DNA of 64,000 nucleotides from Verrucomicrobiota bacterium (GTDB lineage Bacteria > Verrucomicrobiota > Lentisphaeria > JABSQK01 > JAJFLO01). Where the stretch lies: assembly GCA_021772675.1 (NCBI GenBank), contig JAJFLO010000244.1, positions 1,468 to 65,467 on the forward strand, in the 5' to 3' direction. The notes below the pieces were generated by a model. The model worked only from the letters and a program-made list of their open reading frames with translations, made no database searches and was not told the origin of the DNA. Of the stretch, positions 644 to 58,031 are shown in pieces. Every line of letters starts with the position of its first letter. Position 1 is the first letter of the stretch. The position numbers were made by a program, and so were the translations under genes.

Positions 644-650
644 AAAGGAG
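644..650 (+). promoter_or_regulatory. Shine-Dalgarno-like site (AAAGGAG) 6 nt upstream of the giant-ORF ATG
   Basis: Sequence aaaggag-ttttcc-ATG. Most other CDS in the window have no comparable purine-rich site at this spacing. Confidence 0.6.
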
Positions 651-656
651 TTTTCC

Positions 657-875
657 ATGCAGCAATTCAATTCCAACAAGATGTGGTCCCATGTCTTTCT
701 ACGTTTACAATTTCTTATCTATAGCTTTAGCCGAATCAAATCTCGTTTAAACGGCGTGCATCCCCAACAGAGCAGATGCGGCAGTCAGCTCAGGCTGTCG
801 TCATTAATACATTCGCTGACGATGACGGTAATGATGGTTTTGACATTGTCATTAGCCGTTGATACTTCGTTTGCT
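657..875 (+). other. N-terminal 55-aa basic extension followed by a signal-peptide-like segment (MTVMMVLTLSLAVDTSFA|AD)
   Basis: Translation: MQQFNSNKMWSHVFLRLQFLIYSFSRIKSRLNG...SLT then M56 (ATG 822), a hydrophobic core and an A-x-A-like SFA|A site (cleavage between nt 875/876). Which start is used (657 or 822) is unresolved. Confidence 0.5.
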
Positions 876-3800
876 GCCGACGGCGGTATTATATCCGGGG
901 CCGCTACTATTGACATCGCCTCAAACCGGCAAGACCCAAATGCTGGCGGCGCGGTCTATATCGCCTTGTTTACCGACAACGATTTTCAAATCAGTGCCGG
1001 ATTTGTCGATAAAACCAATTCCGTTGCAAATGGTAACTGGGTTGGAACCTTTCCCTACTCGTTCGGCACGATTGCAACACCGGTCACTAACGGCGACTAT
1101 TTCCTGGGTGCATTCATCGACCTGAATAGTGATGATAGGTGGACTATCGGTGAGCCACGCAGCGCCGCGACTACTCTGACAGTTGCCGATGCCGACGCAG
1201 TTGACACTGACCCAAATGATATTAAAACGTCACAGAATGTTATCATTGATGAGGATTTCGATAATGATACACTCCCAGATTGGTGGGAGGTTGAATACTT
1301 TGGCGATCTTGATGAAGATAGCGGTACAGATTCTGATAATGACGGTCTAACCAACCTTGAAGAATTTAATATCAGCATTGCTGCATCGAACTCAGTACCC
1401 GGGATTGATCCAAGTCATTGGGATACTGACGGCGACCAGATGGATGATAAATGGGAATATGATTTTTTCGCTAATGGCAGTGGACTGGATCCTGATGATG
1501 CTACAGGTGCAGAAGGATCAGATGGGGATATTGATAATGATGGTTTGACCAACCTGCAGGAATATCAGGGGGTTGACGGTAATCCGCTTAAAGAACTTGG
1601 CAGTTCAGCAAATAGTATTACCTTGGCATCTGATACCGGCAGTGCCGATGATTTAAGCCCGATTAATATTGATACGGATAATGATACGCTTGTTGATAGT
1701 TTTGAAGCAGCCTGGTACGATACTGGGAATGGAATTGATCCGAATAGTGCGGGTGACGCGGGTGCCGACCCGGACGCAGACGGTTTAAGCAATTATCGTG
1801 AGCAGGCGCTCTTAGCCGAATTCAGGAGCGGCGGTACGATCAATATCTGGACGAATGGCTCATCGTCTACCAATTATCCGACGACGGATGGCAACGGGGT
1901 GCGTGCTTTTGGAACAGCCTTATTCCCCCTTATACAGGATGATGACGCGGATCCAACCGGTACGGTTATCGCGAATTTAAACGAATTGCGTTTCAACGGT
2001 GATGGCAATGCCGGCGGTAACGAATGGACTGATCCAACCAATGGGACGTCCTATGACGAAGTGTTACACGAAGGTTATGATACAGATGATGACGATCTCC
2101 CGGACGGTTGGGAAGTTCAGTTTGGGCTGGATCCCAAAAGCTCAGCCGGAGATGATGGAAAATTTGGTAATCCGGATGGAGATAAATTGTTGAATTTCGA
2201 AGAGTATCTGGGGCAGGATGGCGAACGCTCCGGTACATTACCGTTTATTAACGGTACGGGAGATGAGACGAACCCAAATGTTTATTATTCCCGTCCCGAA
2301 TCAACGACTGCCGGAACCGGAATATCGAGAAATCAGACGCTCGGTTCCGCATTGCCGACAACCAATCTGGTTTCGCAATCCGGGTTGGACAATGATGATG
2401 ACGGTACTGATGATGAAGTCGAAATTCAAACAAATAGTTCAAGTCCGGTTCACTCGATGCATCCGTTCGTAAGACACTCCGCTAAAATTACCTCCGATAC
2501 AGGTATTTTTATACCCGATCCTGAACCCAGCAGTGGTTTAACTCCGGGTCTTAGAGAAGATTTGATATCTCGTGACTGGACACTGGAGTCCTGGGTTAAA
2601 ATCAACGCGGGAGTTACGCTGTCGGTTTACCTGATTGATTTTACTGCCGATACGTCATCTGCCGGGCTGACGAAAAACTTAGTCGCATATCGTTTAGAAT
2701 TGGTTGATAATGTTCCGCAGGCGTCCTTCGAAACCATTGGCAGTGCAAAATACACTGTTACAGGGAAGCCATTAACGACCGGGACATGGATTCACCTTGC
2801 TGCGGTATGGGACCATGCTAATAATCAATTTGCATTGTATGTCGATGGGTTTCTGGCCCAGGAAGAACGGGTATTTGAGGAATCTGTTTCAAATCTGGGA
2901 ATTGGTGGTGACAGTGCGACAAATCGTCCGATTTTGGCTTTAAGAAATGGCGGCGCGACTGCTCTGAATGCTAATTTATGGATTGATGAAGTTCGAATCT
3001 GGACGAGAGCAAGGACGCAAGTGGAAATCTACAATAATCGGAACGTCTTAATTGATCAAAGTACCTCAAACCTGGCGGCCTATTATCGATTTGATGATAA
3101 TGGTGTAACCGCAGAGGACTTCACAAGAAAAGCAAAGAATGGTTTGCTAAGCGCAACCGATGAAAACTTCTTTTTTGGCGATTTCGGTTATGCGTTGCCT
3201 ACCACAAGTTTCAGTTTTGTCACCGACGCCGCTCCGGTTCTTGGTTCCGATCCCAAGGGCGCTGATGACACTGATGGTGACGGAATGACGGATGGCTGGG
3301 AGTTGATTAATAATCTTGATTTAACCTCGGCAGTCGGAAATGGGGGTGCTTCCGGGGATCCTGATGGTGACGGACTGACAAATATTTATGAATTCCGGTC
3401 CGAAACCAATCCAAATGCCCAGGATACTGATGATAACGGCGTTCTCGATACCCTGGAAGATTTTGACGGGGATAATGTCAGCAATATAGCGGAGCAGAAT
3501 TTCGGCAGCCGGCCGGATCTTGCTGATACCGATGACGACGGAGATGCAGACGGGACCGAAGTCACAAACGGCACCAGCCTTACAGATGCTACTGAAAATT
3601 CTGATGATGACGGTGCAAGAAGTTTAAGACTGCCCGGCGCTGCAACCGATTATGCCGAGGTCCCAAACTCGTCCGTTCATTTCCTCACAAGCTGGACATT
3701 GGAGGCATGGATTTATGCAGACGCCGCGCTGGAGACGGGTACAATTGTTCGTAGAGTCGTTGAGCAAGATGCCGAATTCACAAATAATTTGACGACATTT

Positions 3801-6800
3801 GAACTGGGTATAACGGCCGGAAAACCCTATGCAAGATATGTGGAAGATAATGATAGGGATGCAACGGATGTTGAACATCGAGTCAATGCCGCTAATTCCG
3901 GTCCTGTCGGTGATGGAGTGGTTGCGCCGGCAACCTGGACCCATTTGGCAGGAACATTTGATTTTTCATCCGGTGTACTCACCTTGTATGTAGATGGTGT
4001 TCTTGATGATACGAATACCGGTAATACAGAGTCTCCGCCGGCAAATGGTGAAGGCAGTCAGGTATTTCTCCGAATTGGCGAATCATTTGACGGAGATATT
4101 GACGACGTTCGAATCTGGAGTACAATTCGTTCTGAAAGCCAGATCTCCGGTAATAAAGACGCTACAATTGACGGATCAACCACGGGACTGGTAAATTATC
4201 TTCGTTTTGACGATGGACAAGCCGCAGCAGACCCCCGGGGCGCTCAAGATTTCACGGTGTCCCGGGATTGGGATAATCAGTGGACATCTGCTGCAACTCT
4301 AAACGGAGCGGCGGCATTTGAAGTTACGAATGTTCCAATTTTGGTTTCAGCTTCCAGTACAACTGATTCGGATAATGATGATATGCCCGATAGCTGGGAA
4401 ATTGGTGAATTCGGCAATCTTACCACGGCGGAAAACGCCACAAATGCCGGTGGCGGCGCAACAATAGTCAGCGGTTATACGGACAGCGACGGCGACGGTC
4501 TGAACGACTTTTATGAATATTTGTCCGGAACGGATCCCAATGTATCAAACCCGGCACACTTAAGCAGCAACGCTGACACGGATGGATTAACAAATTTTCA
4601 GGAGCAGCAGCGGTCAACAGATGCCAGTAACAATGACACTGATAACGATGGTGTCACCGATGGCGATGAGGTATCTATGCATGGAACGAATCCTCTGAAT
4701 TCGTTAAGCAGCAATTCATTTTCATTGCAGGCCGTTGAATTTACTAACGATACAGATCAGGTAGCGATACCGGTTAATTCGAAATTCGATTTTTCTTCAT
4801 TTACTGTTTCCGCCTGGATTTTCCCAAAAACTGCGTTTGGCGAGGGTGTAATCATCAATAAGCTTGCGGATGGCGGGGGGGTGCATTATCGATTGGGTGT
4901 TACCGCAAAAAAAGCCTATATCAGAATCGGTGCCGTCACGGTTACGGATGCCAATAATTTGACCGCAGATAAATGGGCTCACATCGCGGCAACTTATGAT
5001 TCCAGTACCGGAACAATTACGTTGATAGTAAATGATGATAATGGAACTGGAACTCGCCTGGACAGTGTAACAACAGGGTCATTGGGCGCTTCCGTGATAG
5101 CTGATTCCAGTGAGGCAGTAACAATTGGTTTAAGCGGGTCCAGTGATACTGAAACACTGATTGATCAGGTGCGGCTGTATAATACAGCTTTAACTTCCTC
5201 TCAAATTACATCGGATAGACAGTCTTTTACGACCACCCAATCCTCTAATCTGGTGGGGCATTTCCGATTCGATGATCAGGGAACAACCGTAGAAGATTTT
5301 TCAGAACCCATCGGAAGCAACGCTGTGACTGCAATTACTAATTTAGCAAAGAGTGGAGTTCGAACCACCGGTGCAAAATTAGTTTCCAGCAGTACCCTCG
5401 ATGCGGTGATAAACAGCAGCGATGATACCGATGGTGACGGCCTGTCGGATGTATTTGAAGATGCGACAACTGGAGTCAGCTCAACCGATGCGGATTCAGA
5501 TGACGACGGCATATCGGATGCAAATGAAGATCTCGATAATGACGGCCTGACAAACTTACAGGAATTTCAGGGAGCCGACGGCATTGCAGGTACCGGTGAC
5601 GAGACTGATGCGAATAGCGCAGATACCGATAGCGATCAACTGAACGATAACGACGAGATCACAGCGGGCACTAATGCACTGGATGTTGATACGGATGACG
5701 ATGGAGAAGCCGATATTGAAGAGGTGGAAAAAGGTACCAATCCATTGAACAGCTTAGATCCGCTGGTGCGCCGTGTATTGGATTTTGCCGCTGCCGGGGA
5801 TGTAGCGACGATACCTGCACAAAGTAATTTGTCACTCCATAACATGACGATCAGTGTTTGGGTTAACCCGGATGGTGATGGAAATATTGTCGACAAGGGT
5901 ACCAATTACACCTTGAGTCGTACCGGAGGTGTGGGTGTATTTACCTTTACGATGGTGAAAGTAGATGGTGGAGTTGGCTCTGGTGAAGAGACAGTTACCG
6001 GAGTGACGCCTATACCGACAGCGACGTGGACTCATCTAACAGCCACAGTGGATACAATCAACGATGAGGCTGTATTATATGTTAACGGGGTGGAAGATAA
6101 GAAAATTACCCTACCGAGCCAGGAAGTCCCGGCTACAGTGCTGGGTACAGTCGTTCTTGGCGGCGGAAATTTGACCGGGCAGATTGATGAACTTCAGATC
6201 TGGAACCGACCATTGAGTTCGGCCGAAATATTAACCAATTATGTCTCAAGTCTTGCGGGGACCGAATCAAATTTAGTTGCATATTTCCCGTTTGATGACG
6301 GTCAATGGAACACCAGCGCTGCGCCATATGAGACGCCAAATGGCGCAGAAGATATGACGAATCGTTTGGACTTTACCGTTTCAGCGGTGCTTGGAGGCAC
6401 AACCACGTTTGTTGCTGCGTCCAGTCCGATTAACGTTGACACCGATAATGACGGGGTGTCCGATGGCAATGAACTATTGCTCGGAACAGATTTACTGGTA
6501 ACCGACAGTGATGGTGACGGTTTCCTGGACGGTCAGGAGGATGCAAATAATAATGGCGCCGTTGACGCCAATGAAACTAATCCGGCCAATGCAGATTCTG
6601 ATGGTGATGGCGTCAATGATAATATTGAAGGCCAGACAGCCGATACGGATCTTGACGGGACCATAGATGCCCGTGATACTGACAGTGACGGGGACAACTT
6701 GCTGGACGGTGCAGAAGACCTTGATGGTGATGGTGTTGTTGATAACGGGGAAACAAGCCGGGTTCTTAAGGATACCGATAATGACGGGCTTGATGATGAT

Positions 6801-9800
6801 AAAGAGGCGACGCATGGCACAAATCCGAGAATAACGGACAGTGACGGCGATAGTCTGCTTGATGGAGCTGAGGATGCCGATAATGATGGTGTTGTCGATA
6901 CAAGTGAAACTGATCCGGCCAATGCAGATTCCGATGGTGATGGTGTAAATGATGGCATTGAAGGCACAACGGCGGATACCGATCTTGATGGGACCATTGA
7001 TGCCCGTGATACGGATAGTGATGGTGACGGTCTCCCGGATGCTACGGAAGATGTTGATGGAGATGGTATTGTTGATGCTGGTGAATCAAGTCGACTTTTA
7101 AAAGATACCGATAGTGATGGGCTTGATGATAATAACGAGGTGACGCATGGCACTAATCCGCAATTGTCAGATAGTGATGGAGATGGCTTGGAAGACGGTG
7201 CTGAGGACCAGAACAATAACGGGGTTGTTAACGCAACAGAAACCAATCCGAATAATCCCGATACTGATGGCGACGGTGTCAATGATGGCGTTGAGGCTGG
7301 TAATATTAATTCTTTTGTAGATACTGATCTTGACGGAACAATCGATGCTCGTGACACCGACAGTGATGGTGACGGGTTATTGGATGGCGCTGAAGATCTT
7401 AATGGGGATGGCGATGTTGATGGTGGTGAAACAAATCGAGTTAATGTCGATACGGACTCAGATGGTCTAAATGATGATAAAGAATTGGCTCATGGTTCAA
7501 ATGCACAATTACAAGACAGCGATGGAGATTCGTTAAATGATGGAATAGAGGATGCCGATAATGATGGCGTCGTTGATGCGAATGAAACCGATCCCACTAA
7601 TGCAGATACGGATGGAGATGGATTTAATGATGCCGTAGAAGGCGTTGTTGATACCGATAACGATGGAACGGTTGATGCCCGTGATGCCGATAGTGATGCT
7701 GACGGTGTCACGGATGCCCAGGAATTTGCTGATGGCACCAACCCTAAACTTGCTGACAGTGATAGCGATGGCATTGATGACTTGTTTGAGCGTAATACGA
7801 CGGGTTTAGACGGAACCGTTAGTACCGACGCCGCCGGTGATATTGATAGTGATGGTCTTACAAATTTATTTGAGTATCAGGGTATTGACGGTATTCCGGG
7901 AAGCGGCGATGAATCCAGTTTGACAGATCCTGATACCGATGATGACGGATTATTGGATGGAGCAGAGTTTACTGCTCAAACTAATCCACTAGACGTTGAT
8001 ACGGATGACGATGGTGAAACGGATCAAGAAGAGGTGTTTCAAGGAACAAACCCGCTGGACAGTATTGATCCCAGGGTTCGCAGAGTATTAAACTTTTCTG
8101 ATACAAATGCAACAGATACCGCAACAATTCCTGCTCTGGCAAAATATCAGACCACAAGTTATACCATTGCATTGTGGGTTAGAGCCGCGGCAACGGGCAT
8201 TTTACTTAAAAAAGGGGCCGATTATACACTGGATCTGGTTGCATTGGTTCCTGAATTTACATTTACGATGGTCGATATTGACGGAAACAATCCGGTTGCC
8301 GAAACCGTAACAGGTCCGGATGCATTGACCGCAAATGCATGGACTCATCTAGCTGTGGTTGTCGATTCCGTAAACAATCAGGCGATTCTTTATATCAACG
8401 GTGTGTCGGTTGCCACCGAACCCATTGATAGTCAGAAAATTCCCGGTTCATCACTGACGACGATCGTGTTAGGTTCCGGCGGTGCATTTGTGGGTGATAT
8501 TGATGAACTTCAATTTTGGAGTAAATCATTAACGCAATCGGAGATTACAACAAATTCAAGAACGGATTTAACCGGAGCTGAAACCGGACTCATCGGTTAT
8601 TTTTCATTTAATGACAGTCAATGGAATAGAACAAATGAGCCAACATTTGAGTCTGCCAATGGTGCTGAAGATTTTACGGCGAGACGGGATTTTACCCAGT
8701 CAGCAGGTATTGACAGTGCGAATGTTACATTTGCCGAGTTGACGGAACCTTCGTTTTCGTTTAATTCATCCCATGAGACCGGAGCCACCGTCAGCGTTGA
8801 TCTGGGAGAGTCCAAGAGCATCACATTGTATCGATCGTTTACGGGATCGGGCAGTGCGACTACGGTAAATCTGGTATCAAGTGATCCGTCTAAATTTTCG
8901 GTAGGTTCCGAGGCAATATTCACCGTCAATTCAACGACAACAGATATTGTGATCACTGGAATTGCCGCCGCCGCCGATGCAACGTTCACAGGAATCCTTT
9001 CAGTATTAATAAATGGCGTACAACAAACATCTGTAAATGTTTCTGTTCAACCTACTGCCTTGACGATTACCGGACCAGCAGCAGTCGTTGCGGGTGATCT
9101 GGATACCTATACAGTGACACGACCTGCAAGCAGTGATGTCTCTCAATCCGTTTCTGTCAGTCTGTCAATAGATAACAATGGTGCATTTCAGGGGTTTGAT
9201 GGGCAGGGGAATTTTATTTTTGTTCAGGGAGCAGCTGTGGTTATTCCTGCCAATACTGTGAGCGCTACAATTGACGTTTATGGCGTATCGCCGGCATCCA
9301 ATGTGAGAATACGAGCGACGGCAACCAATCTCGTTGATGGTACTTTGGATATTAATGTTAGTAATCCAACATTGACATATGCCCCAAATACTAATCCTAC
9401 GGTTGTTCTGGTCGGGGAAACAAAGTCGATTTTGATTGAGCGCCAGTTCAATCAATCTCAGGGGCAGTTAGTGTTGAGTTTTATAAGCAGTGATACCAGT
9501 TTGTTTACTATTACTGGGGCGCTTACGTTTGGACGGAATCAGGTGCCGGGCATTATTAATGTAACCGGTGTGTCGTTGTCCGCGGGTGATAAAGATGGAT
9601 CAGGGCAGATTTTAGTGCGTGCCGGAACCGCGACCATAGACACATTAAGCATCAAAATCGATGCAAACACAAGTTTGACATTGACTGTCCCGAACGACAA
9701 CCAGGTGGTTGCGGGTGATACGGCGACGATGACCGTAACCCGTAACGGATCAACATCGGACAATTTGGTTGTTTCTTTAGTCAGCGATGATGAATCATTA

Positions 9801-12800
9801 CTGACCATTTCGAATTCTGTTACAATCCTGGCAGGAGAAACTGCCGCGAGTTTTGCTATGACCGGCGTGAGCCCCGGCAATAATGTTACGGTGAGGGCAA
9901 CGGCGCCGGGCTTTCCGGTCGACACGAATTCTAATCTGAATATTAATGTACTTAACCCGACAATTATCGCACCGGCCAGTGTTTCGACTCTTGTTAACAA
10001 TACCAAACGAGTCACGATTTCCAGACCGTTTGATGAAACGGGAGCCAACTTGAATGTTCAATTGCTGAGCACAAATACAACTGCATTTACCGTTCCCGGA
10101 ACCATCACGATTCCCGCTTTAAATACCAGTGTCAGTTTTAATGTTTCCGGAGTAAACTTAGGGTCGGGTCAACTGCTTATGGTTGTCGGACCGTATGCGG
10201 TGGGTACAAATGTGACTGTGACCGCACTGGACATCACCGGCGTTGAATTTCAGGACGGTAATGCAAATGGCCGGATTGATCGTGCCAGAGTGGTCTTTTC
10301 GTCACCGGTTTTAGACCACACAGTTAATGTTTCGCAGTTTGATGTTGTTTCAATCAATGAATTTGACTATGCAAACGAAACCTTAACTGTGCTTACCGAC
10401 ATTGCTAATGATGCGGTAATCTATATCACATTTGATGAACGAACCGTCGGTTATGACACGGGTATCATTCCTGATTTATTAATTACGACGCCAACGCTCA
10501 CCGACTTTTCAAGTCGACTGTTGAATAACGGGAGTTCATTGGGGCAGGATAATTTAATTGAGACAGATCAAGCGTCGCCGGTTCCGGTACAGGTTTTTAG
10601 AAGCGATCCGATTGCAGCGGGAGGAAATCTTCCGGACGGTACTGTGTTAACGGTTGTATTCAGTGAACCGATTGTCAATAATGCCTATGTCGAAGCCGCC
10701 GCAAATTTTGGTGTGGATCCGGACGGTCCGGGTGGTGGAGTCTCTTTATTTGCACAGGGACTAGATGGTTCGGCTGTATTAGCTGCCAGTTCGGCGTTTA
10801 ATGGGAATCGACTGATATTTACTCTTAGCGGTGCGACAACGAGCGGGAACTGGACGAATAATGCAACATTTAATTTGTTTAATTCACCATTTTTACAAAT
10901 CAGAGATGGAATTAACAATAATAGCAATAGAAATGTTGCTAATATTGTTGTCCGGGCTGATGAGCGTTTTATTGATGCGCCAAATGATACGGGTGAAGCA
11001 ATCATAGGACTAAATCTGAATCAACTGACGACAACATCGTCCTCCAGGCTTTCAAGTGTGATTGTAAATGTCGGCAATGTAGGAACCTTTCCGCCTTATG
11101 ATATTAGCGGTGATTTGAACTTTACATTATATAGAGATATCAATCATAACGGGACACTGGAAATTGGCACTGATGAAATAATTTCAAGTACAGGAACTCC
11201 AGGGGCATCAACATTTAGGCTTGAGCTCGACAATGGCCAATTATTACCCGCTGATGATAGTGATAATACGCAATTGTTTACTATTCAGGGAGTCGCTGTA
11301 GCAGATTTCACAACCCTGGATTCGGGTACATTAGTTCCGGATGTGATTGTTACAGCATTTGCAAATAATGCACGTACCCTATCATCGGATGCACACATAA
11401 ATGTTAATACTCAGGGAACTCAGTGGCAAATCGTTGATTCTAGTAATTTGTATTTATTAGTTAATGAAGCTGGAACAGTTCGTGTATTTTATAATAATGC
11501 AGGATTGGACTACCTTGTTGTCTTACGCACGACGGCCTCCGCAGGCTACTCAAAGGCCGGCCAATTTACGATTAATCCCGGTGACTTGATTATAAGCGAT
11601 GTAAACAATTTGCCTTTGGTGCCAATCCGTACCCCCGTGTATCGGTCAAGATTAAGTTCTGTAATTTCTGATGTTGTTGCCCGGAACTGGGCGATTTTTT
11701 CACTTGATCCTGACGAAACAATTGGTGAAACGATGGACACAATCACCTCAGATAATGCAAAAGTAGTTTCGTTTAATGCCAATTCAGGTCGTATTACAGA
11801 CTTTCCGGCAAGATTGGAAGCAAGGAACAGTAATTTTTCTAATGCGGTCGAAATCACATTTTCCGGAAGACTAACAGATGAAAGTACCCTTACTATCGCG
11901 GGTAGTGGCAATGTAACGGTAGAAATTGTTGATGAAACGACAGGAAATGTGATCGTATCATTAGGTACTCTAGCGTTGGATCAATCTGGTTCAAGTTTGT
12001 CAATTTCAGCAGCTGCCACACTCGATCCTGATACCAATCACGTACTACGATTAAAAAATGATAGCGATAATGTTGTTGATTTCGTAAGTGTATCGTTAAC
12101 AAATACAGGTGCTACCATAAGATTCAATACTCCGTCAGCACTCTTGCGTGTTGATGCCCAAAATAATTCCGCAACCTCAGTAAACCTTACGGAAATGCAT
12201 ATTAATTTCAGTAGTACGAATGGTGTATTTACACCAGAAGATTTATTAGATATTGATAATACAGCAACTAGCGGTGTTGCAATTTATAAGGATAACGGAG
12301 ATGGAATTTTTTCGTCTGTAACCGATACATTAATTCCATCTGCGGCTTCAACCGATGTCTTTTGGAATGGTTCCGGGCCTTATACGGTAAATTTACAAAA
12401 TTTAGCTGGTGCGATGATAAACGCGGCAACAACAGATATCTACTTTATTGTTGTTCGGGTAAGTCAGAATGCTGAAGATAATGAGCAATTTTCGGCAGCA
12501 ATAAAGGCCGGCGGTCTTGTTTACAGTGAGCCAGCTGTAAGCTCGGAAATTACAAGTGTTAACGTGACATCTTCGTCGCTAAAAGTGGATACCATTCCAC
12601 CGGCTCTAAAATTGGTTTCGTTTGTCGATGTCGATGGCAGTCAGAATGCCAATGCCGGTGATAATTTTCGATTTGAATTTAGTGAACCGATAGATTCTTC
12701 ATCGATTACTATAGCAACGATCAATGCTGCTCTTCCCATTACTTCAGGAAATTCATTTAATGCAACGTCATTGTTCTGGAGTGCTGATGGATTAACGCTA

Positions 12801-39800: not shown

Positions 39801-42800
39801 TCTCATATTGCTGCAACATATAGTCGTGGTAGTCGATCGTTGGAGCTTTATGTTAATGGTCAAAAAATTTCTTCTACAGTTGTTACGAATGGCATAATGA
39901 CAACCGGTTTTGGACCAATCTGGGTGCGGTTTGGTGAAGGATTTACTGGATTTATTGATGAGGTTAGATTGGAGAAAACAGCTATAAGTCTATCACGAAT
40001 TCAGTTCGGCATGCATAGCCAGCCTGATATTAGTTCAGGACAATTGGCAGCCTATTTTAATTTTGATGATGGTGGAGATAATATTCATAATTTGGTATCA
40101 TCATTTAGCAGGGATTGGGAAGAGCAGTGGCTGCATTCTTTGATTGTGATTGGCAATGCTGTGGTTGAATCAGCCCCGATGGCTGTTCCAACAGTACAAT
40201 CTGGTATTGATAAAGATGGTGATGGTATCAGCGACAGCTGGGAACTACAACATTTCGGTTTAATTTCTCAAGTAAATGGCCGTGGTGATTTTGATAACGA
40301 TGGTGTCAATGATCTGTATGAATTTTTGAATGGTTCAGATCCACGATCGATTGGCTCAGATGCTGAAGATGACAAGGATAGTGATGGACTATCTACCATT
40401 GAAGAGCAGGCACATGGAACATTACCGCAAGAGCAAGATACTGATGATGATGGCCTGAATGATAAGGCTGAAATAGCGGCCGGGTCAAGTCCATTACATT
40501 CAATGAGTCCTCTAACAGAACGAGCATTGGATTTAGCACAAGTCGCTGCGACGGGAGTACAATTACCGTTTGCTGCAAATGAACTAAATAATCGGTTAGT
40601 CGATTGGACAATAGAATCTTGGATTCTAATAAAAGGAAATCAGACTGGGGCAATTTTAAGTAAATCTATCAATGGCCGTATCGGGTTTGAACTTGGATTA
40701 GTGGATAATGTGCCTTATGTCAGATTTCAAAAAGCAAGTGGAGATGTTAATATCGACTATTCTTCAAGCCAAAGTTCAGTGACTACGCCAGCCCTCCAGG
40801 TAAATAATGGGTGGGTACATTTAGCGGGTGTCTGGAATCGAGGCACTAATGTGCTTCGGCTTATTATTAATGGAAACACAATTATCGAGACACTGGTAGG
40901 CAGTTCCGTTTGGCCAATAGATGGATTTGGTTTAGTCACATTAGGTGCGGGGTTGGATAATGTTGTCATTGATGAGGTCCGAATTTGGAAAACCTTTCGT
41001 AGTCAAGTCGACATTGATAGTGATAGATGGAATTTGATTTCGTCAAAGAGTGCGGGTTTAGTTCGTTATTTCAGGTTCGATGACGGTGGTGATACTATTG
41101 AAGATTTTGCTCATCCCGGATTTAAAAATGAGTCAATATATGCATTTATAGCGCCGGGTGTTACCGTGTCTGATGCCCAAGCATATTTTGGATTAGATGA
41201 CCGTGACGATGATGGGATGCCGGACTGGTTTGAAAGTCTTTACAACGTTTCTGACGCTAATGAGGATTCGGATGGGGATCAACTTACAAATCTATACGAG
41301 TATTTTGGTAAGACTGATCCAATAATTAATCTTACGAGTGATTTGAAATCGGATCCGGATGGAGACGATCTTGATAATATTACTGAACAGAAATGGGGAA
41401 CTAATCCAAATATGTGGGATACGGATAATGACGGTTGGTCCGATGGGCATGAAGTGCTGGGTAAGGATGATATTGCTTTTGATGCAGATAATGATGGTAC
41501 TAGCGATCTAGCATCAAGTACCATATTACCACGTCGTCCAAGTAGTTTCACTTTTGCCAGTGATCCGCTAAGCCCATTACAGCCTGTTCAGCAAGCAAGT
41601 ATAAAGCTTACGGGATTGAATGTTGGTGCTGTGGTACCAGACAACAGTAAGTATGCTTTAAACAGCTGGACTATTGAAGCTTGGATTAGACCTACAGCGG
41701 ATAATTCTGGCGTGATCCTAAACCGTTCAGTTGGCTACAATAATGGATCATCCATTATTAATTACGAACTTGGTATCGCTAACGATAGCGGAGTGCTGCG
41801 ACCTTATGCAAAATACGTCACTCAATCCGGTGTTACCTATAGCGTTGGTGGTGCGGATGCTATCGTTCCTTTTGGCCATGTTTTGTCTGTATCCAATGGT
41901 GTCTGGACTCATTTGACTGCAACATTTGATCAAGCAAGTTATACATTGAGACTCTTTATTAATGGTATGCCGGTTGGCGAACGGATTGATTCGAGTGAAT
42001 TTCCAGTTTGTCCAGTGGCAGGAAATGGGCAGGCACTGGTCAGTACAGCTCCTGATACGTTTGTATTCGTTGGAGCAAGTGTTCAAATTGGCAGTGGATT
42101 TACAGGCAATATTGATGATATAAAAATTTGGGCTGGTGCTCGAGATGGCGACATAATATTCGATTCGTATCGTTCGGTTGATGCAAATGCCAGGGGCGGT
42201 GTCGAGCCTTTGAGTCATGATTCGTCCATCGTTGGCTCTGGTTTGGTTGATGTCAGTGTTTTGTTAAATGCGGATCACGAGACAGACGAATTATTGGTAT
42301 GCTATCGTCATGATTTGAATAAAATACAACGCGATGAACTCAATGAATCCATGAACGTCGTATTGATTAGAGAAAGTCCTTTGACGGGAATTCAGTTGGT
42401 TAAAATCGCGAAAGATAAATCGATGGCAGATAAGATTCTTGAGTTCAGGTCAAATAACGATGTGTTATATGTCGAACCAAATTACAAACTTAAAATTCCA
42501 AATGATATTATCGAATCGAATCAATCTGTACCGGATTCATTTTCCTTTCCTAATGATCCGAATTTCGATCAACAGTGGGGACTTCATAATATTGGACAAA
42601 CCGGTGGTTCCGCTGGTGCGGACATTAATGGTCCACAAGCCTGGGATATTACACGAGGTTCACGGGATGTTATCGTCGCTGTAATTGATACTGGTGTTGA
42701 CTATAATCATCCCGATATTGCTGGAAACATGTGGGTGAATGAAGGAGAAATACCCGGCAACAGCATTGATGATGATAACAATGGGTTTATAGATGACATT

Positions 42801-45800
42801 TATGGTTATGATTTTGCCAATAATGACAGTGATCCAGTAGACGATAATTTTCATGGTACACACGTTGCCGGTATAATTGGGGCCATTGGCAATAATAATG
42901 AAGGGATCGTCGGGGTTAACTGGAATGTTCGCATTATGGCACTTAAAATATTCAATAGTTCCGGTGTTGGTAACGCTGGTACGACAGATGATGCGATACA
43001 GGCCATCGAATATGCGATTCAAATGGGTGCAACATTTACCAACAACAGCTGGGGAGGTGGGGGCTTCTCGCAAGCCTTGAAGGACACGATTGAACGAGCA
43101 GGTGAAGCAGGTCAGCTTTTTGTTGCCGCAGCTGGGAACGATAACTCAGACAACGATGCCACGCCATCATATCCTGATTCATATGATTTGGATAATATTA
43201 TTTCAGTTGCTGCGAGTACCGATCGCGATAGTTTGGCGTCATTTAGTAATTTCGGCGCGGAAAATGTTGATTTGATGGCCCCAGGTCAAGGGATTATAAG
43301 TACTGTTCTAAATAATCAATATGAAACAGTTTCTGGAACGTCACAAGCAGCACCTCATGTTTCAGGTGTGGCCGCATTAATTCATGCAGCAAATCCTAGC
43401 TGGTCGTGGGATCAGGTTAAAAACGCGATTCTTAATAATGTTGACGAAATCCCAGATATTGAAGGGAAAATAGCAACATCTGGGCGCCTAAATGCCGTGT
43501 CAGCACTTAGTCGCGGAGGCGCGTTGAATCTGGTTGCATATTTTCGTAGTGATGCAGGTATCGGCGTCCAAGGCGCAATCGCGTCCAGCCTAGTAAGCGC
43601 TGCAAGTATAATTCATGATTTAACAGAAATGGACGATTGGTCCCTGAACCTTAATGGACGAACTGGGAAATTTGCGGCCAAATTAGTTAATGCGTCTATT
43701 GACGACGTCGAGTTTGCCTTGATGCCTGGAGATATTGACGGTGACGGTATGCCAGACTGGTTTGAAACTGCTTATGATCTCAATGTATTCGGTGAGGACG
43801 CAAATGACGATGAAGACGTAGATGCTTTAACCAACTATTACGAATTTTTAGCTGGTACAAGCCCAATCGATTTTGCAACCAATGGTCAAACCGCTGACAT
43901 AATTGCAGATTCAGATATTGACCAGATTTCGAATCAAGATGAACAAATTACTGGCTCACATCCCGGCGATATCAATGCGGACACGGACAACGATGGGTTG
44001 ACCGATATTATTGAACAATCGGGGGACAATCCGACATCTGTAACGGATTCATTATCACCCTTTAAGGATCGTGCATTAAAGGTTAACTCAAGTACCAATG
44101 ACTTTTTAGTATTACCAAATCAACCTCGATTTTCTATGGGTAACAGTTGGACGGTTGAAGCAATGGTAAATCTAGACAAATTCTGTAAAGATAATCAAGA
44201 TAATATCGTAAATGGTGGAGTCGTTGATGATAAGGCCGTTATCATCAGCAGAGCAATTGATGATAATGCCGATGGTGCGTTTAATGCAATAAATTATGAG
44301 TTAGGAATTAGCGCGATTGGAAAACCCTATGTGTTGTTTACTAGTGCAACTATTCCAGGTACAAATTTTAATATTGAGTTTAAAGCGGAAGCCTCAACTC
44401 AATTAGAATGTGGTTTATGGACGTTTATCGCAGGTAGTTATAATGCACAAGAACAAACATTGGGGATTTACGTCAATAAAGTGTTGTGGGTGGAAATTTC
44501 GACTGCATTTGAACCGGCTGGGTCCGAACCGGGTAAAACTGAAGTTGTTGCTGGTAATAACTTAACGGGTCAAATTGATAATTTAAGGATTTGGAACAGT
44601 CACTTTGGCAGCATTGTTGCCGCTGAGATTGAAAGTAACGGATTCGATCTATCAAATGATTTGGTTGCATTTTACAGTTTTAATGACGGTGGAACTCACA
44701 TTCAGGATTTTGCCTCAGGATTTGAAGATGATTGGAAAACAGGCTGGTTTAATGCAGCACAGTTTGCTGGAAGCGCGGCACTAAATGACCAACTTGGTGA
44801 TGATGGAGTTGATCTGAATGCTGACAGTGATGACGATGGTATTCCGGATTGGTGGGAACTGCTTCATTTTGGACATTTGAGTATCGTGGAAAAAGATAGT
44901 AAGTCTGATTCAGATGGGGATGATTTGACTGATATCTTTGAGTATTTATCAGCGACAAATCCCAATTTAGTGGATTCCGACGGAGATGGAATTGAAGACT
45001 TTGACGAAGACGTAGATAATGATAACGTCTTAAATCTTGACGAACAGGATTTTGGAACTAATCCCGGATTGAAGGATACTGATGACGATGGTAAAAGGGA
45101 TGATGTAGAGTTATTTACGAATTTTACTGATGCCAGGGATAGTCTAAATCCAAGAGTTGAACGTGTCTTAAACATTAATAACGGCTATTTATCGGTAAGC
45201 AATAACGATAACTTAAGTTTGTCAGAATTTTCAGTCGCCGTTTACGTAAATCCAAGTGTTAACGCATTAGTTGATCAAGTCATTCTTGAGAAAGTTGGAG
45301 ATGATGAAAAGCTGAATTACCAACTGGTACTTCAGGCAAATAACAAGGTCAAATTTCTATATCATCGCGATCAGTCCGGTACACCACGCGAGGTTACTTC
45401 GACAGCAACATTGAGTTTTAATTTATGGTCGTTGATAATTGCCGAACTTGATAGTACCAACGAGAAAATCAAGTTAACGATATATGCCCGCGACAATATC
45501 AATAATTTAATCGAAAAATCGTTTAATGAAAATGATGCCTTTGGTGACCCGGTTACTGGTGTGGGTCCGTTGTATATTGGATCATCAAAACCTGTTTCTG
45601 GAACAACACCAGTAGGGCAATTTCAAGGGATGATTGACGAACTATCAATTTGGCCTAATCCATTGACCAGTACGGAAGTTAATGATATTCAAAATCTTTC
45701 TATAAGCGTAAATGACGAAGTTTCACGTGCCAAGTTAGCTGCGTATTACAAGTTTAATGACGGGGGTGAAACTGTCGAAGATTTCGCTCATGATAATGAC

Positions 45801-48800
45801 ATAAATTTTGCTGCAAAATTTAGTGTCTTGGTGCGAAATAATACAACAATTCACTTTTTGGACAATACATCAACGCTACCTGTAGGTACGACAATTGGCA
45901 ATGTTGAAGATTCCGATACTGACGGTTTGCCCGACGATATTGAACTGCTTATTATCGAAGCTATTGGTAATGATGGAATTGATGATCTGGAACATGTTGA
46001 TCCAGAGGGTGATTTTGATAGTGATGGTTTGACTAACCTTCAGGAAGTTCAGTTCGATGGTGATCCTGCTTATAATAATCTGACTGATACAAATCCAATT
46101 GAATTTGATTCAGACAGTGATGGTATGGCGGACGGTTGGGAAGTTCAATTTTTATTAAATCCATTGAGCAGCACTGATCGAGATACGGATAATGATGGAG
46201 ATGGTCTCACGAATCTCGATGAGTATCTTGGAGAAAACGGAAAGATCGATGGTAACGACATCATATTGACTGCGACACCTATTGTATGGGGTGATTCCAC
46301 TGATCCAGGTAATGTTGATACTGATAGCGACGGTTTAAGTGATTTTTGGGAAGTGAATTTTAAAATCGATGCATTGACAGCAAATGCCGATGCCGATCCC
46401 GATTTAGATGGATTAATAAATATTGTGGAACGTGATAACCAGACCAATCCAAATAAGAGAGATAGCGACAATGACGGATTAGTCGATAAATGGGAAGTCG
46501 ACAATGGTTTTAATCCTGTTGATATCCTTAATCCAGATACAAATGGCGATCCAGATGCTGATAACTTAAATAATGTCAATGAACAATCTGCAGGAACAGA
46601 TCCCAGAAATCCAGACACAGATGGTGATGGCCTACCGGACGGGTGGGAAAAAATGAGTGTTAATAGCCAGGGCACATCTCTCAATCCGTTAGATGACGGA
46701 ATCGATGATACCGATCCAACAATCACGAATGGAATTCACGGAGCTAATGGCGATCCAGACCTGGATGGTATTTTTAATAAAGATGAGTTTACTGACCTGA
46801 CAGATCCCTGGGTAGCAAATAATGTTAATGTTGTGGAACCAAATATTGCAAATACTATCGCTCCCAATATTGATGACATCAGTGTCAATATTTCACCTCT
46901 CAAACCATTTATTGGTAGTGAATTGACATGTACGGTTGATGGCGGTTCTGATCCCGATCTTGATGACTTTTTTCCAAAGTTTCAGTGGTATCGGGCTATC
47001 TCTGGAAATGGTCGCATAGTGGTGAATGCAACCCCATTGATTGGAATCGGCGAACAGCAGCTATTTGAGATAGTCGCCGCCAATTCCGATGATATAATTA
47101 ATCTTAATAACCAGATAATTACGACTAATTTAGATTCAGAGTTTACCACTGGAGGTCACGAGTTATCGACCGGAGCGCTGGTTACAGTAATATCGCCTGA
47201 TGAAGAATGGTACATTAAGGATGGCGTGAATGAATTCGCACTGAGGAAAGAGGGAACTAAAGTTGTCGTATATGATCGTGGAACCTTTACGGATGACACA
47301 TCTAACCTCAATGGAAATAATATTACTGCTAACTTAAGATCACAGTTTATCTCTGGGGGGCAAACCTTATCGGAAGCTGCCAAGGTTCGATTGATTTTGG
47401 GCGATTCAGAATGGCATATCAAAGATGGAACTGATGATTATGTGCTTAAATTGGAAGCTGATGGAACGAAACCGATACTAAATGTCTATGATGGTATTGA
47501 TCCTACGGGTCTAGACCCTGGATTAGTGGATGCAAATGGAGATGCCATTACTCAGGGAGCAGATAAAGGAAACTGGGTGGCAATAATCGGAGCGACGAAT
47601 AATACCTATATGGCGGGCAATATTCCACAGGATTATGTGTGTATTGTCTACCTTGAAGATGAATTTGGTAATTCTACCGATCGCATTTTTAGTAATGTCA
47701 TTTTCTCCATAGAGGAGATTGTCATGACTGATCAAGGGCAGCAGGTTAACGTTATTGACCTATCACCCAAGGTGAAAATCACGGAAGACAAGGTCAATAA
47801 CAAGTTAGTTGCCGCAATCACAAATGAACCGGCTAATTTGGAAACCGGAACAACAATTGGATATAATTATCGATGGTTTAGAAACTTTGGTGATCGCGCT
47901 GGTGAGGATCTAAACCGTACTGGGTCAATTTTAACTATCGATGAGGAAGTTTTAAACGGCGATGTCTGGTATGTTAGAGTCAGCAGTACGATTACAAAAG
48001 GAGGAGTTAGTGGTATTGAAATTCCCGATGTGTTTAGCAATTCCATAACAATTGGGGGAGGCGTGACTGAAAATAGCAAACCGACGAACCCAACGGTTTC
48101 AATAATTCCTTCGAATCCACAAGCAGCATTTGATGATATTACATGTGTTCCCTCGGGTTCTGTAGACCCTGACGGAGATTTATTCTTGTTCGACATTAAA
48201 TGGTTTGAATTTAACTCAACAACCAATTCCTTAGACCCATTACTAAACAGCTCAGGCGCACAATTCACGACTGAAACAATATTGGCGGAAGATACTGCAA
48301 CCTTTACAGGAAAACTTATTTCCTGTCGCGTTACCGCGGTTGATATTTTTGCTAATTCAAGTGCTCCAATTGATAGTGCAAATGTAACAGTAAAATCGGC
48401 TGAGAGTGGATCTGGCACAGGTGGTACGATAAATGGCGACGGCTTTGAACCAGATAATAGTGTGGCAACCGCTCGGCCAATTGAAGTCAATACCCAGGTT
48501 CAACAGCATGACTTACGTGAAGACGCGGACGAACAGGATTGGGTTAAATTCAGGATAAAAACAAGGTCAAAAATCTCAGTTTTTACCGGAAATAGTGAAA
48601 CGGTTATCAATCAAATTCAATCCAATAGTAATCTCAATGGACAAGGGGATTCGCATGTAGATACATTTTTGGAGTTGTTCAGTTCCGGTAATACCAGCTC
48701 TGCATTGAGGTTTAATGATAATACCGGTGATACTGCTCGAAATGATTTTACATTGTCCGCAAAGATTCTTAATGCTATTTTGAATCCGGGTACCTATTAT

Positions 48801-56933: not shown

Positions 56934-58031
56934 TCAGCTGTTCAAATAATCCATCTTCGTTAACATTCTGACGGGCTGTCGTTTCGTACCCCAGGTTCCT
57001 GGTTGAGCTTCAAATCGGCCTGAACATCGTGTGCCGCATTGGTTGCATATACCCGTGTTATTCAAATTCCAGTCACTTAAATTATACCAATCTCGACCGA
57101 TGAGTAGATGGCCACATTCATGGCAATAAGTGCTTGCTCCTAATTTGTCATGAACGTTGCCAGTGTATGCATAACGCACTCCATTTTTTATAGCTATGTC
57201 CCTGGCTCGGGTAAGAGTTGCTGAGGGTGTTCTCGGTTTATCTAACATTTTAAAATCAGGGTGAAATGCTGTGAAATGCATTGGGACATCTGGGCCGAGA
57301 TATTCAACAACCCATTGCGTCATTTCTTCAAATTCTTTATCGGAATCGTTTTCATCAGGGATTACCAGGTTTGTCAGTTCAAACCAGACGTTAGTTTCAT
57401 GCTTTAAATATTCCAAAGTTTCAAGAACTGGTTTAAGTTCGCCTGCACATATTTTTTTGTAGAACCGTTCCGTAAATCCTTTAAGATCGACATTGGCAGC
57501 GTCAATATGTCGATAAAATTCGGTACGGGGATCAGCGCACATATATCCGGCTGTTACGGCAACGGCTTTAATTCCGACATCATGACATGCTTGGGCGATA
57601 TCAACCGCATATTCGTAAAATATGACTGGGTCATTATAAGTAAATGCGACACTTGAACAACCCAAACGTTTTGCTTCACTCGCGATGCGTGCTGGGGTTG
57701 CGGAATCCATCAGCGTATCCATTTCCCGTGATTTACTCATATCCCAGTTTTGACAAAATTTACAGGCGAGGTTGCAGCCCGCTGTACCAAATGACAAAAT
57801 CGGAGTTCCGGGTAGGTAATGATTCAATGGCTTTTTTTCAATGGGATCAATACAAAAACCACTTGAGCGTCCGTAGGTAGTTAAAACCATCGTATCGCCT
57901 TGCCGCATTCGCACAAAACATAGGCCGCGTTGTCCGTCTTTGAGTTTGCAGAAGCGTGGACACACATCACATTGAATCCGATTATCCTGCAGTAGATGCC
58001 AGTGTTTGACGGGTATTATACTTGGTTTCAT
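56934..58031 (-). CDS. amrS: AmmeMemoRadiSam-system-type radical SAM enzyme (PflA-like activase fold)
   Basis: 365 aa. N-terminal Cys cluster CDVCPRFCKL..GLCFVR, radical-SAM CNLACKFCQNW (CxxxCxxC), C-terminal Cys cluster CHECGH...CNQCGTRC. Confidence 0.8.
   Translation of the reverse strand: MKPSIIPVKHWHLLQDNRIQCDVCPRFCKLKDGQRGLCFVRMRQGDTMVLTTYGRSSGFCIDPIEKKPLNHYLPGTPILSFGTAGCNLACKFCQNWDMSKSREMDTLMDSATPARIASEAKRLGCSSVAFTYNDPVIFYEYAVDIAQACHDVGIKAVAVTAGYMCADPRTEFYRHIDAANVDLKGFTERFYKKICAGELKPVLETLEYLKHETNVWFELTNLVIPDENDSDKEFEEMTQWVVEYLGPDVPMHFTAFHPDFKMLDKPRTPSATLTRARDIAIKNGVRYAYTGNVHDKLGASTYCHECGHLLIGRDWYNLSDWNLNNTGICNQCGTRCSGRFEAQPGTWGTKRQPVRMLTKMDYLNS

Follow-up and report, generated by a model that had tools for sequence, protein, structure and literature searches.

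Contig JAJFLO010000244.1 (GenBank assembly GCA_021772675.1), from a bacterium classified in the Verrucomicrobiota, raises the question of whether an open reading frame (ORF) of 49.6 kb can be one real gene and, if so, what a protein of that size would do. The window, meaning the whole stretch of DNA analysed, comprises 64,000 nucleotides (nt; positions 1,468 to 65,467 of the contig), and its features are collected in Table 1. We find that the ORF is a real, intact single gene. Its product, here called the giant protein, is in our judgement probably, though far from certainly, a Sec-exported, Ca2+-stiffened, multivalent lectin-like fibre, serving as an adhesin or matrix protein and processed by its own subtilase.

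The first-pass annotation of this DNA had described a single ORF of about 16.5k residues filling 77 % of the window, free of in-frame stops between 657 and 50259-50261 and not a chance frame, with an Asp/Asn/Gly/Thr-rich, Cys-poor product of about 1.8 MDa. Each of these points was borne out. Our own translation ends ...KERN* with one terminal stop only, and the ORF occupies 77.5 % of the window. The closest in-frame stop 5' of the start ATG lies at nt 600, and the window contains no N. With a random-codon stop probability of 0.0645, the chance of 16,534 stop-free codons is ~1e-479 at the base composition of the window, and over the same stretch each of the other five frames is broken by 486-2,155 stops. 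The start is preceded by a canonical ribosome-binding site, recognisable domains lie along most of the length, and GC content by codon position follows GC1>GC2>GC3 all along the ORF, the same pattern as in the flanking housekeeping genes. The product has a computed mass of 1,787,778 Da and a pI of 4.05. Acidic residues number 2,755 and basic ones 927; the composition is rich in D (11.5 %), G (9.2 %), S (8.2 %), N (8.1 %) and T (7.6 %), with only 12 Cys. No intrinsic terminator was found 3' of the stop codon, and Rfam and tRNA scans of the window gave no matches. The putative signal peptide would be the sole export signal for ~100 extracellular-type domains, so that the product would have to be made as one chain, which argues against several independent genes.

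The repeats within the gene were evaluated as a possible source of misassembly. The closest internal DNA repeats are four 333-nt tandem units (nt 6,499-7,735) at 72-80 % identity, and the best short internal DNA match is 84 % over 44 nt. At the protein level, repeat identity between modules is 30-50 %, except in the tandem array at amino acids (aa) 1876-2360 (65-76 %). The internal repeats are therefore old and divergent at the DNA level, and nothing is expected to collapse or mis-join in an assembler. This reduces the concern about repeat-driven misassembly but does not remove it.

The N-terminus carries the signal-like hydrophobic segment noted in the first pass. An h-region at aa 49-67 (nt 801-857) follows a 48-aa N-extension and leads to an S-F-A|A-D cleavage-type site; in a hydropathy scan it is the sole strongly hydrophobic segment of the giant protein, there being no hydrophobic segment in the C-terminal region and no transmembrane segment besides the signal peptide. 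The N-terminus contains no lipobox. The giant protein is thus probably exported via a Sec-type signal. Its extracellular character is supported by the restriction of hydrophobicity to the N-terminus, by the acidic and Cys-poor composition, by the content of TSP3_bac, LamG, Big_5 and pro-S8 domains, and by TSP3 similarity to CglD and MtsD.

Most of the chain is built from LamG modules and TSP3 linkers. Pfam Laminin_G_3 (PF13385) matches span aa ~600 to ~15,020, the per-tile scores rising as high as 192 bits (cut-off 27.6). A self-trained hidden Markov model (HMM) gave 31 matches, corresponding to 30 modules of which one is split by a 210-aa insertion, in line with the earlier estimate of about 30. 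We aligned twelve regularly spaced paralogous units (alignment A2), which defined a supermodule of ~350 aa. Each consists of a LamG jelly roll ('WTIEAW...WTHIA...LYVNG...IDEVRIW'), a strand of the form 'LVAYYRFDDGG..EDF' and then three to four TSP3 loops ('D.D.DGLPD.WE...DPDGDGL.N..E...GT.P...DTDDDG..D..E'). Module-to-module identity among the LamG domains is ~30 %, and the residues conserved across them are core positions (W114, A118, G159 and D167 in A2 numbering). An AlphaFold2 model of one supermodule, with the 12 paralogues as alignment, reached a predicted local distance difference test score (pLDDT) of 81.3. Foldseek matched this model to the PAPP-A LG domain, the Bacteroides carbohydrate-binding protein BACOVA_03559, pentraxins, CBM40 and the neurexin LNS domain (best E 8e-12). 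By their Pfam scores and this model, the modules belong to the LamG/concanavalin-A-like lectin superfamily with a jelly-roll fold.

Acidic loops of the DxDxDGxxDxxE type occur 152 times in the whole protein. The TSP3 loops of the first pass are therefore present, but the eukaryotic TSP_3 model proposed for them has no match; it is the bacterial TSP3_bac (PF18884) that scores above its cut-off in several tiles, at up to 41.7 bits. The loops are a Ca2+-binding-type motif and are predicted to bind the ion. The tandem array of aa 1876-2360 contains the most alike repeats in the gene, and it matches the CglD TSP3 region at 1.9e-57.

A complete pro-subtilase is embedded far downstream in the chain. 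The catalytic domain, which confirms the internal subtilase of the first pass, matches Peptidase_S8 (PF00082; 1.2e-62, 212 bits against a cut-off of 21.8), with the triad in subtilisin order at D14011 (nt 42687), H14066 (nt 42852) and S14229 (nt 43341) and an oxyanion asparagine at N14161. The prodomain had been expected to be of the Inhibitor_I9 type; that model has no match, and the Fervidolysin_NPro-like PF22148 matches instead. Among solved structures, that of the collagenolytic deseasin MCP-01 (3vv3) lies closest to the S8 domain (5.8e-98), and the triad motifs of the two align. The domain is also ~50 % identical to thousands of S8 proteins. With triad, oxyanion Asn and a directly preceding prodomain present, the protease is predicted to be active. 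A search with the S8 domain also returned three relatives of ~1,475 aa (P0008, P0009 and P0010), each with an unusual architecture of three tandem pro-subtilase units and a very basic, Lys/Arg-rich tail, and otherwise unrelated to the giant protein.

Few relatives of the gene were found. The C-terminal 634 aa found 2 matches among 5.8 billion proteins, a 351-aa fragment (90 % identity) and an 858-aa protein (42 %). Scans at the DNA level brought in a further two fragments of 90 % identity and a single species-representative genome, a 'Verrucomicrobia bacterium' metagenome-assembled genome (MAG; locus L004). Giant proteins are evidently missing from the protein collection, as neither the window giant nor its L004 homologue was returned, and the family is therefore apparently rarer in protein tables than in nature. 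In L004 the frame stays open up to the edge of the sequence covered, a length of at least 4,244 codons, and is colinear with aa 12,836-16,531 of the giant protein at 39-46 % identity. The common order is four LamG, the pro-S8, two LamG (6 LamG in total) and the C-terminal region. This colinearity provides independent corroboration of the last quarter (~3,700 aa) of the giant ORF. The window giant, L004 and a low-coverage long-read contig (L002) are colinear, and the family is marked by a C-terminal core of 4 LamG, pro-S8, 2 LamG, TSP3 repeats, beta-sandwiches and a C-terminal module of ~350 aa. MnmE lies downstream of the giant homologue both in L002 (6820-8193) and in L004 (13832-15220), the two copies being 56 % identical; the giant homologues of these two relatives thus sit at a common locus, which is not the one seen in the window.

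The 90 % fragments represent a sister species. Two of the three come from published Mycale hentscheli sponge metagenomes (PMC7157528, PMC7196800), and the third (WLWI01) is not tied to any paper and is identical to the other two where they overlap; the contigs include JAAHTH010033733.1 and WLWI01059009.1. The sister species has a RapA 82 % identical to that of the window, in the same assemblies, and keeps the order giant C-terminus, M20 peptidase, RapA. The proteins flanking the giant gene, on a contig of 65,950 bp, are all singletons when clustered at 90 % identity, and the window RapA also occurs in the Logan assembly of SRR15505515. Among the five named RapA relatives (43-44 % identity), three are from Verrucomicrobiota and none is gammaproteobacterial. 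A gammaproteobacterial origin, considered on the basis of RapA, was rejected on these grounds and because L004, the one match in species-representative genomes, carries a Verrucomicrobia label. The host is probably an uncultivated bacterium of Planctomycetes-Verrucomicrobia-Chlamydiae (PVC)/Verrucomicrobiota type, whose closest sampled relative lives in the sponge M. hentscheli.

The C-terminal module is strongly conserved. Its identity is 90 % in the sister species, higher than that of RapA (82 %) or M20 (61 %), and 39-45 % in L002 and L004. Over the last 351 codons the ratio of nonsynonymous to synonymous substitution rates (dN/dS) against the sister species is 0.04, with a dS of 1.48; the module is under strong purifying selection. 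It ends in a twin domain of two units with the pattern 'GWNL(I/V)..P ... GYW(V/I)YS', or more fully 'GWNL(I/V)(S/G).P ... VW.YD ... G.GYW(I/V)', hereafter GWNL. GWNL-like units also end the unrelated multidomain proteins P0247, P0256 and P0298, which carry Big_5 arrays and, in P0256, a beta-helix as well. Neither module nor twin has a match in Pfam, and PDB-sequence profile searches (A3, A4) gave nothing below E=0.1. The GWNL twin looks like an uncurated anchoring or sorting domain. Known C-terminal sorting signals (PEP-CTERM, LPXTG, GlyGly-CTERM and the T9SS CTD/Por_Secre_tail) and autotransporter/TpsA membership were considered and rejected, as the last 534 aa have no corresponding Pfam or NCBIfam match and no hydrophobic helix. 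P0057, an S8 peptidase encoded in an Aenigmatarchaeota MAG, also has a partial single GWNL copy close to its C-terminus.

These data allow us to propose a mechanism for the giant protein as a surface fibre. The long N-terminal signal peptide would send the unfolded chain through Sec. Outside the cell, the ~150 acidic TSP3 loops would bind Ca2+ and stiffen the linkers among the 30 lectin/pentraxin-type LamG jelly rolls, giving a very long, strongly acidic and multivalent fibre. Ca2+-rigidified giant adhesins are established (PMC5550230, PMC7493085). Given that the LamG modules are only ~30 % identical, the range of ligands bound by their surfaces could be wide and include glycans and matrix components of a host or of other cells. 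An autoprocessing role has been suggested for the S8 domains of giant proteins (10.1101/2023.11.21.568195). The prodomain would help the subtilase to fold and a cut would fall at the prodomain/catalytic junction (aa 13,950-14,000), yielding a ~1.5-MDa N-terminal fibre and a ~0.28-MDa C-terminal piece, possibly still associated via the prodomain; bound substrates may be a further target of the protease. Subtilases typically make such an autocatalytic cut at the junction of propeptide and catalytic domain, and the propeptide is removed. Finally, the C-terminal module with its GWNL twin may hold the assembly on the producer surface or mediate a conserved interaction. Overall, the protein would serve the cell as an adhesin that depends on Ca2+ or as a surface fibre resembling extracellular matrix, possibly directed towards an animal host.

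A bolder elaboration, which we consider distinctly unlikely as a whole, is a self-severing and self-tethered adhesin. Here the autocut ~1.5-MDa fibre would be held non-covalently, via the prodomain at its C-terminus, on the ~0.28-MDa protease-bearing base, and the GWNL twin would fix this base to the cell as an uncurated surface-anchoring or sorting module, possibly used outside bacteria too. Degradation of the prodomain would then free the fibre, an in-cis analogue of the LapG/LapA switch, in a sponge-associated lineage whose genome may be ~2 Mb and of which the gene would make up ~2.5 %.

Several observations weigh against the reading as a Sec-exported surface fibre encoded by one intact gene. 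On the side of the gene, third-position GC (GC3) is 0.40-0.45 in codons 1-2,100 and 2,700-3,300, whereas the remaining codons of the ORF have ~0.32 and the genes on either side 0.33-0.37; the shift near codon 3,300 (657-10550 against 10551-50258) could reflect a mosaic history, a join made in assembly or gene conversion. Homology to the sister species starts only near window nt 49,245 (aa ~16,184-16,197). Immediately 5' of this point, all three of its contigs have in-frame stops ('...FKAPL*AMFFRNNQ...'), and they end 24-100 nt beyond those stops (L003 1-30, L008 1-30 and L009 1-105, against window ~49180-49250). The C-terminal module of the sister species is either a stand-alone 351-aa ORF with no signal peptide or the remnant of a giant gene interrupted, for example, by a repeated element. 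In L002 a stop and a change of frame separate the part that corresponds to aa 14,722-15,452 from the one that corresponds to aa 15,640-16,531; either an error in sequencing or a genuine split may account for this. A further relative, with a RapA 77 % identical (L005), keeps the order RibE, RibD, PLD, RapA on a 1.95-Mb contig (ptg000066c, ERZ18545485) that looks closed (we read it as circular from its hifiasm-style name ending in 'c') and has no giant gene within 10 kb of RapA; adjacency of RapA and a giant gene was not found in more distant relatives either. The gene thus looks dispensable or unstable in close relatives, and these interruptions and absences mean that it is intact here yet not universally retained. 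On the side of the protein, the 48-aa extension ahead of the h-region is unusual for a signal peptide, neither an outer-membrane route nor an anchoring mechanism was identified, and no secretion genes adjoin the giant gene in the 13.7 kb downstream and 0.65 kb upstream covered. AlphaFold2 gave the C-terminal module a pLDDT of 36.8 on a 3-sequence alignment, and its anchoring role is therefore a guess. LamG folds also occur in non-adhesive contexts.

A rival reading takes the gene for an artefact or a dead gene, either a chimeric join of related repeat-bearing genes or a non-expressed relic. The fall of GC3 around codon 3,300 and the fragmented or interrupted state of the homologous locus in relatives speak for it, as does the Logan short-read assembly of SRR15505515, which gave just a 6-kb contig for the neighbouring RapA region. 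We nevertheless hold it to be very improbable: the internal repeats are too dissimilar to mislead an assembler, and a chimeric join would also need to keep the reading frame. A relic should gather stops, of which there are none here, and would not be expected alongside a canonical ribosome-binding site, strong purifying selection on the C-terminus and colinearity of the last 3.7k aa with an independent MAG (L004). For an intact gene, the large size and acidity, the repeats of Ca2+-binding type and the modular make-up with many beta-sandwiches might suggest membership of the RTX (repeats-in-toxin), type-I-secreted giant adhesins of the LapA, MpIBP or SiiE type. This possibility is refuted, and we give it next to no chance. 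There are 0 GGxGxD nonapeptide motifs in 16,534 aa and no HemolysinCabind (PF00353) match in any tile, the N-terminus carries a Sec-type signal rather than a retention module, and the neighbouring DNA covered contains no ATP-binding cassette (ABC), membrane fusion protein (MFP), TolC or LapG/LapD genes of a type-I secretion system (T1SS).

Other readings accept the secreted protein and differ in the role of the subtilase. In a degradative scaffold, S8 would be the effector and the 30 LamG modules would act like carbohydrate-binding modules (CBM), targeting it to glycoprotein or polysaccharide for nutrient acquisition or attack. The intact triad, the collagenolytic nature of the closest solved relative (deseasin MCP-01), a downstream PPC-like domain of a type typical of secreted proteases, and the fold matches of LamG to CBM40 and a Bacteroides carbohydrate-binding protein are consistent with this, and cell-surface polymer degradation has been proposed for giant proteins, including those of predatory Omnitrophota (10.1101/2023.11.21.568195). 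Yet one 290-aa catalytic domain per 16,534 residues is a very poor enzyme-to-scaffold ratio, Pfam and NCBIfam found no glycoside hydrolase, lyase or second catalytic domain in any tile, and a protease beside its own prodomain inside the chain fits self-processing equally well; we regard this account as rather unlikely, while giving it some weight. Alternatively, the chain could be a polyprotein precursor, exported once and cut at many sites by its own or other proteases into released LamG/TSP3 lectins. The embedded pro-subtilase and the regular ~350-aa supermodules with acidic, probably exposed linkers would suit such processing, and cutting of giant proteins into smaller polypeptides has been suggested (10.1101/2023.11.21.568195). 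However, alignment A2 shows no recognisable conserved motif for cleavage from one supermodule to the next, its linker conservation being that of the TSP3 Asp/Gly/Glu residues, Ca2+-loaded TSP3 linkers would be expected to resist proteases, and there is no precedent with such an architecture. Multiple cleavage of this kind seems to us improbable.

The surface-fibre reading can be set against systems already described. With MpIBP of Marinomonas primoryensis (1.5 MDa; PMC5550230, PMC7493085) the giant protein shares a megadalton-scale, very acidic, Cys-poor, extracellular character, long runs of beta-sandwiches, Ca2+-binding linkers, lectin-type ligand-binding modules and a presumed role in attachment. 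MpIBP is distinguished by ~120 near-identical Ig-like (immunoglobulin-like) spacers, C-terminal RTX repeats and type-I secretion, whereas the window giant has a Sec-type signal, no RTX, 30 divergent LamG, TSP3 linkers, a pro-subtilase and another C-terminus. MpIBP has been characterised structurally and functionally (PMC5550230), so that the first-pass statement that no giant of this kind has an experimentally defined function was too strong. Giants of the Omnitrophota and other PVC phyla (TSP3-rich 'dockerin-type' and S8-bearing; 10.1101/2023.11.21.568195) are likewise giant single ORFs from the PVC superphylum with many TSP3 repeats and an S8 domain suspected of autoprocessing, predicted to be extracellular and uncharacterised. 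Unlike the Omnitrophota giants, the window giant has no dockerin, discoidin (F5_F8_type_C), HEAT or multiple transmembrane segments, is dominated by LamG, carries its S8 near the C-terminus rather than the N-terminus, and has 16.5k aa against >30k aa.

The resemblances to smaller proteins are confined to parts of the chain. Secreted subtilases with a fervidolysin-type prodomain, such as deseasin MCP-01, share the prodomain plus S8, the intact triad and downstream PPC-like or beta-sandwich domains. They are 600-1,700 aa long with the pro-S8 right behind the signal peptide, whereas ~13,800 residues precede the prodomain here. By its domain content, the protease unit is an ordinary fervidolysin/deseasin-type subtilase. 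Myxococcus CglD, a gliding-motility adhesion lipoprotein, and MtsD have similar acidic TSP3-type Ca2+-binding repeats (NCBIfam CglD, at best 1.9e-57); in contrast to CglD, the giant protein has no lipobox and neither a VWA nor any other part specific to CglD, and the matches cover the repeats only, the best reaching 195 bits against a family cut-off of 400. Planctomycetal giant genes (Kohn et al. 2016, PMC5177795) are also very long PVC genes, mostly for surface proteins with predicted adhesion or carbohydrate binding, but they measure at most about 36 kb and come from cultured strains with 6-12-Mb genomes, against 49.6 kb in a lineage where a relative has a 1.95-Mb contig. As quoted in that paper, the rule of Reva and Tummler (2008) holds that >90 % of giant genes encode surface proteins or polyketide synthases/non-ribosomal peptide synthetases (PKS/NRPS), and it applies to the window giant too.

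Size alone is not new, although the first pass had ranked the product among the largest of bacteria. In one survey, 7,478 proteins from databases reach a length of 10,624 aa or more, with proteins of 10-20 thousand aa in PVC phyla including Verrucomicrobia (10.1101/2023.11.21.568195). As giants of such size are already catalogued in large numbers, our finding adds an architecture and not a new principle. What is new is the combination, in which a Sec-type signal precedes 30 LamG/TSP3 supermodules, a pro-subtilase is embedded in the chain and the C-terminus is formed by a twin domain that is uncurated; as anticipated in the first pass, no named family fits the whole LamG/TSP3/Ig/subtilase/PPC-like combination. 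If the surface-fibre reading is true, the protein would exemplify how bacteria lacking RTX/T1SS-type adhesins build megadalton-scale surface fibres: a Sec signal is followed by lectin-type LamG modules on TSP3 linkers that bind Ca2+, and an inbuilt subtilase possibly controls maturation or release. LamG and thrombospondin-type repeats are motifs of the animal extracellular matrix. Given these motifs and a closest sampled relative in a sponge, the giant protein is a candidate host-interaction factor. The GWNL twin, which ends unrelated secreted multidomain proteins too, offers a target for defining a new anchoring or sorting domain.

Table 1. Features of the giant gene and its product in the window (nt, window positions; aa, residues of the giant protein)
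Feature	Position (nt)	Strand	Residues (aa)	Basis and remarks
Shine-Dalgarno AAGGAG, canonical	645-650	+		6 nt 5' of ATG 657; direct sequence reading
Giant ORF	657-50261	+		16,534 codons then TGA 50259-50261; ORF listing, own translation
Extended signal peptide, putative	657-878	+	1-73/74	Hydropathy scan and sequence reading
N-terminal region	879-2456	+	75-600	Beta-rich domain, then TSP3-like acidic loops; self-matches, motifs
LamG/TSP3 supermodule block I	2469-6281	+		Pfam Laminin_G_3, own HMM
LamG 1-4	2469-3065, 3612-4181, 4719-5243, 5763-6266	+		Pfam, own HMM
Tandem TSP3 array	6282-7736	+	1876-2360	Period 111 aa (333 nt); 65-76 % aa, 72-80 % nt identity
LamG 5	8073-8582	+		Own HMM
Ig-like repeat array	8604-10106	+	2650-3150	Units of ~110 aa; self-BLAST, 30-38 % identity
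Unique region without family	10107-12563	+	3151-3969	
Big_5 (SbsA-type) Ig-like array	12564-13481	+	3970-4275	
LamG/TSP3 supermodule block II (LamG 6-28)	13482-42188	+		Pfam, own HMM, supermodule alignment, model
LamG 6-11	13884-14438, 14757-15347, 15354-15860, 16533-17153, 18009-18581, 19056-19598	+		
LamG 12-17	20100-20636, 21168-21710, 21717-22289, 23025-23597, 25032-25586, 26190-26726	+		
LamG 18-23	27237-28505 (insertion-split), 29706-30269, 30393-31088, 32322-32864, 32889-33464, 34701-35237	+		
~55-aa repeats, EF-hand-like	27534-29216	+	8960-9180 (inside LamG 18), 9300-9520	'DxNxNGxF(T)xGEDxWxD'; self-comparison
Further ~55-aa repeat copies	31554-31946, 34434-34661, about 38870-39080	+		Some with 'DGGDGW(E/T)T'
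LamG 24-28	36327-36914, 38262-38771, 39486-40037, 40512-41051, 41586-42188	+		
Glucodextran_B/Big_7-like beta-sandwich and weak DUF2135-like stretch	37557-38153	+	12301-12384; 12465-12499	
Subtilase prodomain, Fervidolysin_NPro-like	42267-42482	+	13871-13942	PF22148, 2.1e-7, 31.7 bits, above cut-off
Peptidase_S8 catalytic domain	42663-43526	+	14003-14290	PF00082
LamG 29 and 30	44061-44657, 45153-45716 (span 44061-45716)	+		Own HMM
C-proximal TSP3 array	45774-46916	+	15040-15420	Pfam TSP3_bac 2.2e-8, motif density
~45-aa repeat pair	47064-47516	+	15500-15545, 15570-15615 (region 15470-15620)	
Conserved C-terminal beta-rich region	47574-49178	+	15640-16174	Three 'WF.N'-type sandwich-like units; alignment A1 with P0007
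Conserved C-terminal module	49179-50258	+	16175-16534	~350 residues
Twin GWNL domain	49719-50258	+	16355-16534	Last ~180 aa; two ~85-aa units

The remaining regions of the giant protein are only partly covered by family models. The N-terminal region (aa 75-600) has no Pfam match at E<=1. The Ig-like array that follows LamG 5 has a weak DUF4183 match under the cut-off (Pfam E=3e-4), and the unique region behind it (aa 3151-3969) matches neither Pfam nor PDB sequences and has weak homologues only among 1.84 billion representative proteins. The Ig arrays with Big_5 (PF13205) reported earlier are substantiated at aa 3979-4077 (Pfam 1e-5, 26.7 bits against a cut-off of 23.6). Matches in the representative library mostly fall on this array (aa 3970-4275), and the best of them, P0247, carries three Big_5 domains. 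The Glucodextran_B/Big_7-like sandwich scores above its cut-off (Pfam 4.5e-7). Of two further families proposed in the first pass, DUF2135 has a weak match just under its cut-off (2.3e-4, 21.6 bits against 22), and PPC (PF04151) is represented by a PPC-like domain at aa 15961-16052 (nt 48537-48812) below its own (8.7e-4, 20.6 bits against 25.9); the C-terminal beta-rich region in which the latter lies also has a weak match to NCBIfam FDP_fam. MAM (PF00629) has no match in any Pfam scan of the giant protein. That call probably came from a jelly-roll-like domain at window about 35274-35756 (aa 11540-11700), which ends 'GEFGWRIDDVVLTG' and has no Pfam or NCBIfam model at E<=0.01.

Two kinds of short repeat are interspersed among these domains. 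The ~55-aa EF-hand-like repeats have no Pfam match. The ~45-aa repeats follow the pattern 'S..A.V.(V/L)I....EW.I.DG...(F/Y).L.K......V.D', and a third copy lies at aa ~11205-11250 (window about 34270-34400). At the break in L002 (4152-4235), the ORF on the side matching aa 15,640-16,531 is the 858-aa ORF, and both ~45-aa repeats (aa 15,470-15,620) are missing.

The giant gene is flanked by genes for an M20 peptidase, an ATP-grasp-like protein, RapA, a radical-SAM enzyme, a PLD nuclease, RibD and RibE. The DNA beside RapA seems to vary: on the side where the window has M20 and the giant gene, L005 (13359-14227) instead has a ThsB-like TIR gene, an 8xMP gene and other small genes. The radical-SAM enzyme between RapA and the PLD nuclease (window 56934-58031, minus strand) belongs to the AmmeMemoRadiSam system (TIGR04337, 648 bits), and no AMMECR1 or Memo family match was found among the other flanking ORFs scanned. 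Its gene is present in L001 and missing at the equivalent position in L005. Between the M20 peptidase and RapA, a 454-aa ORF (window 52108-53472, minus strand) has weak RimK/ATP-grasp similarity; the sister species lacks it, and there M20 directly follows RapA (L010, L011).

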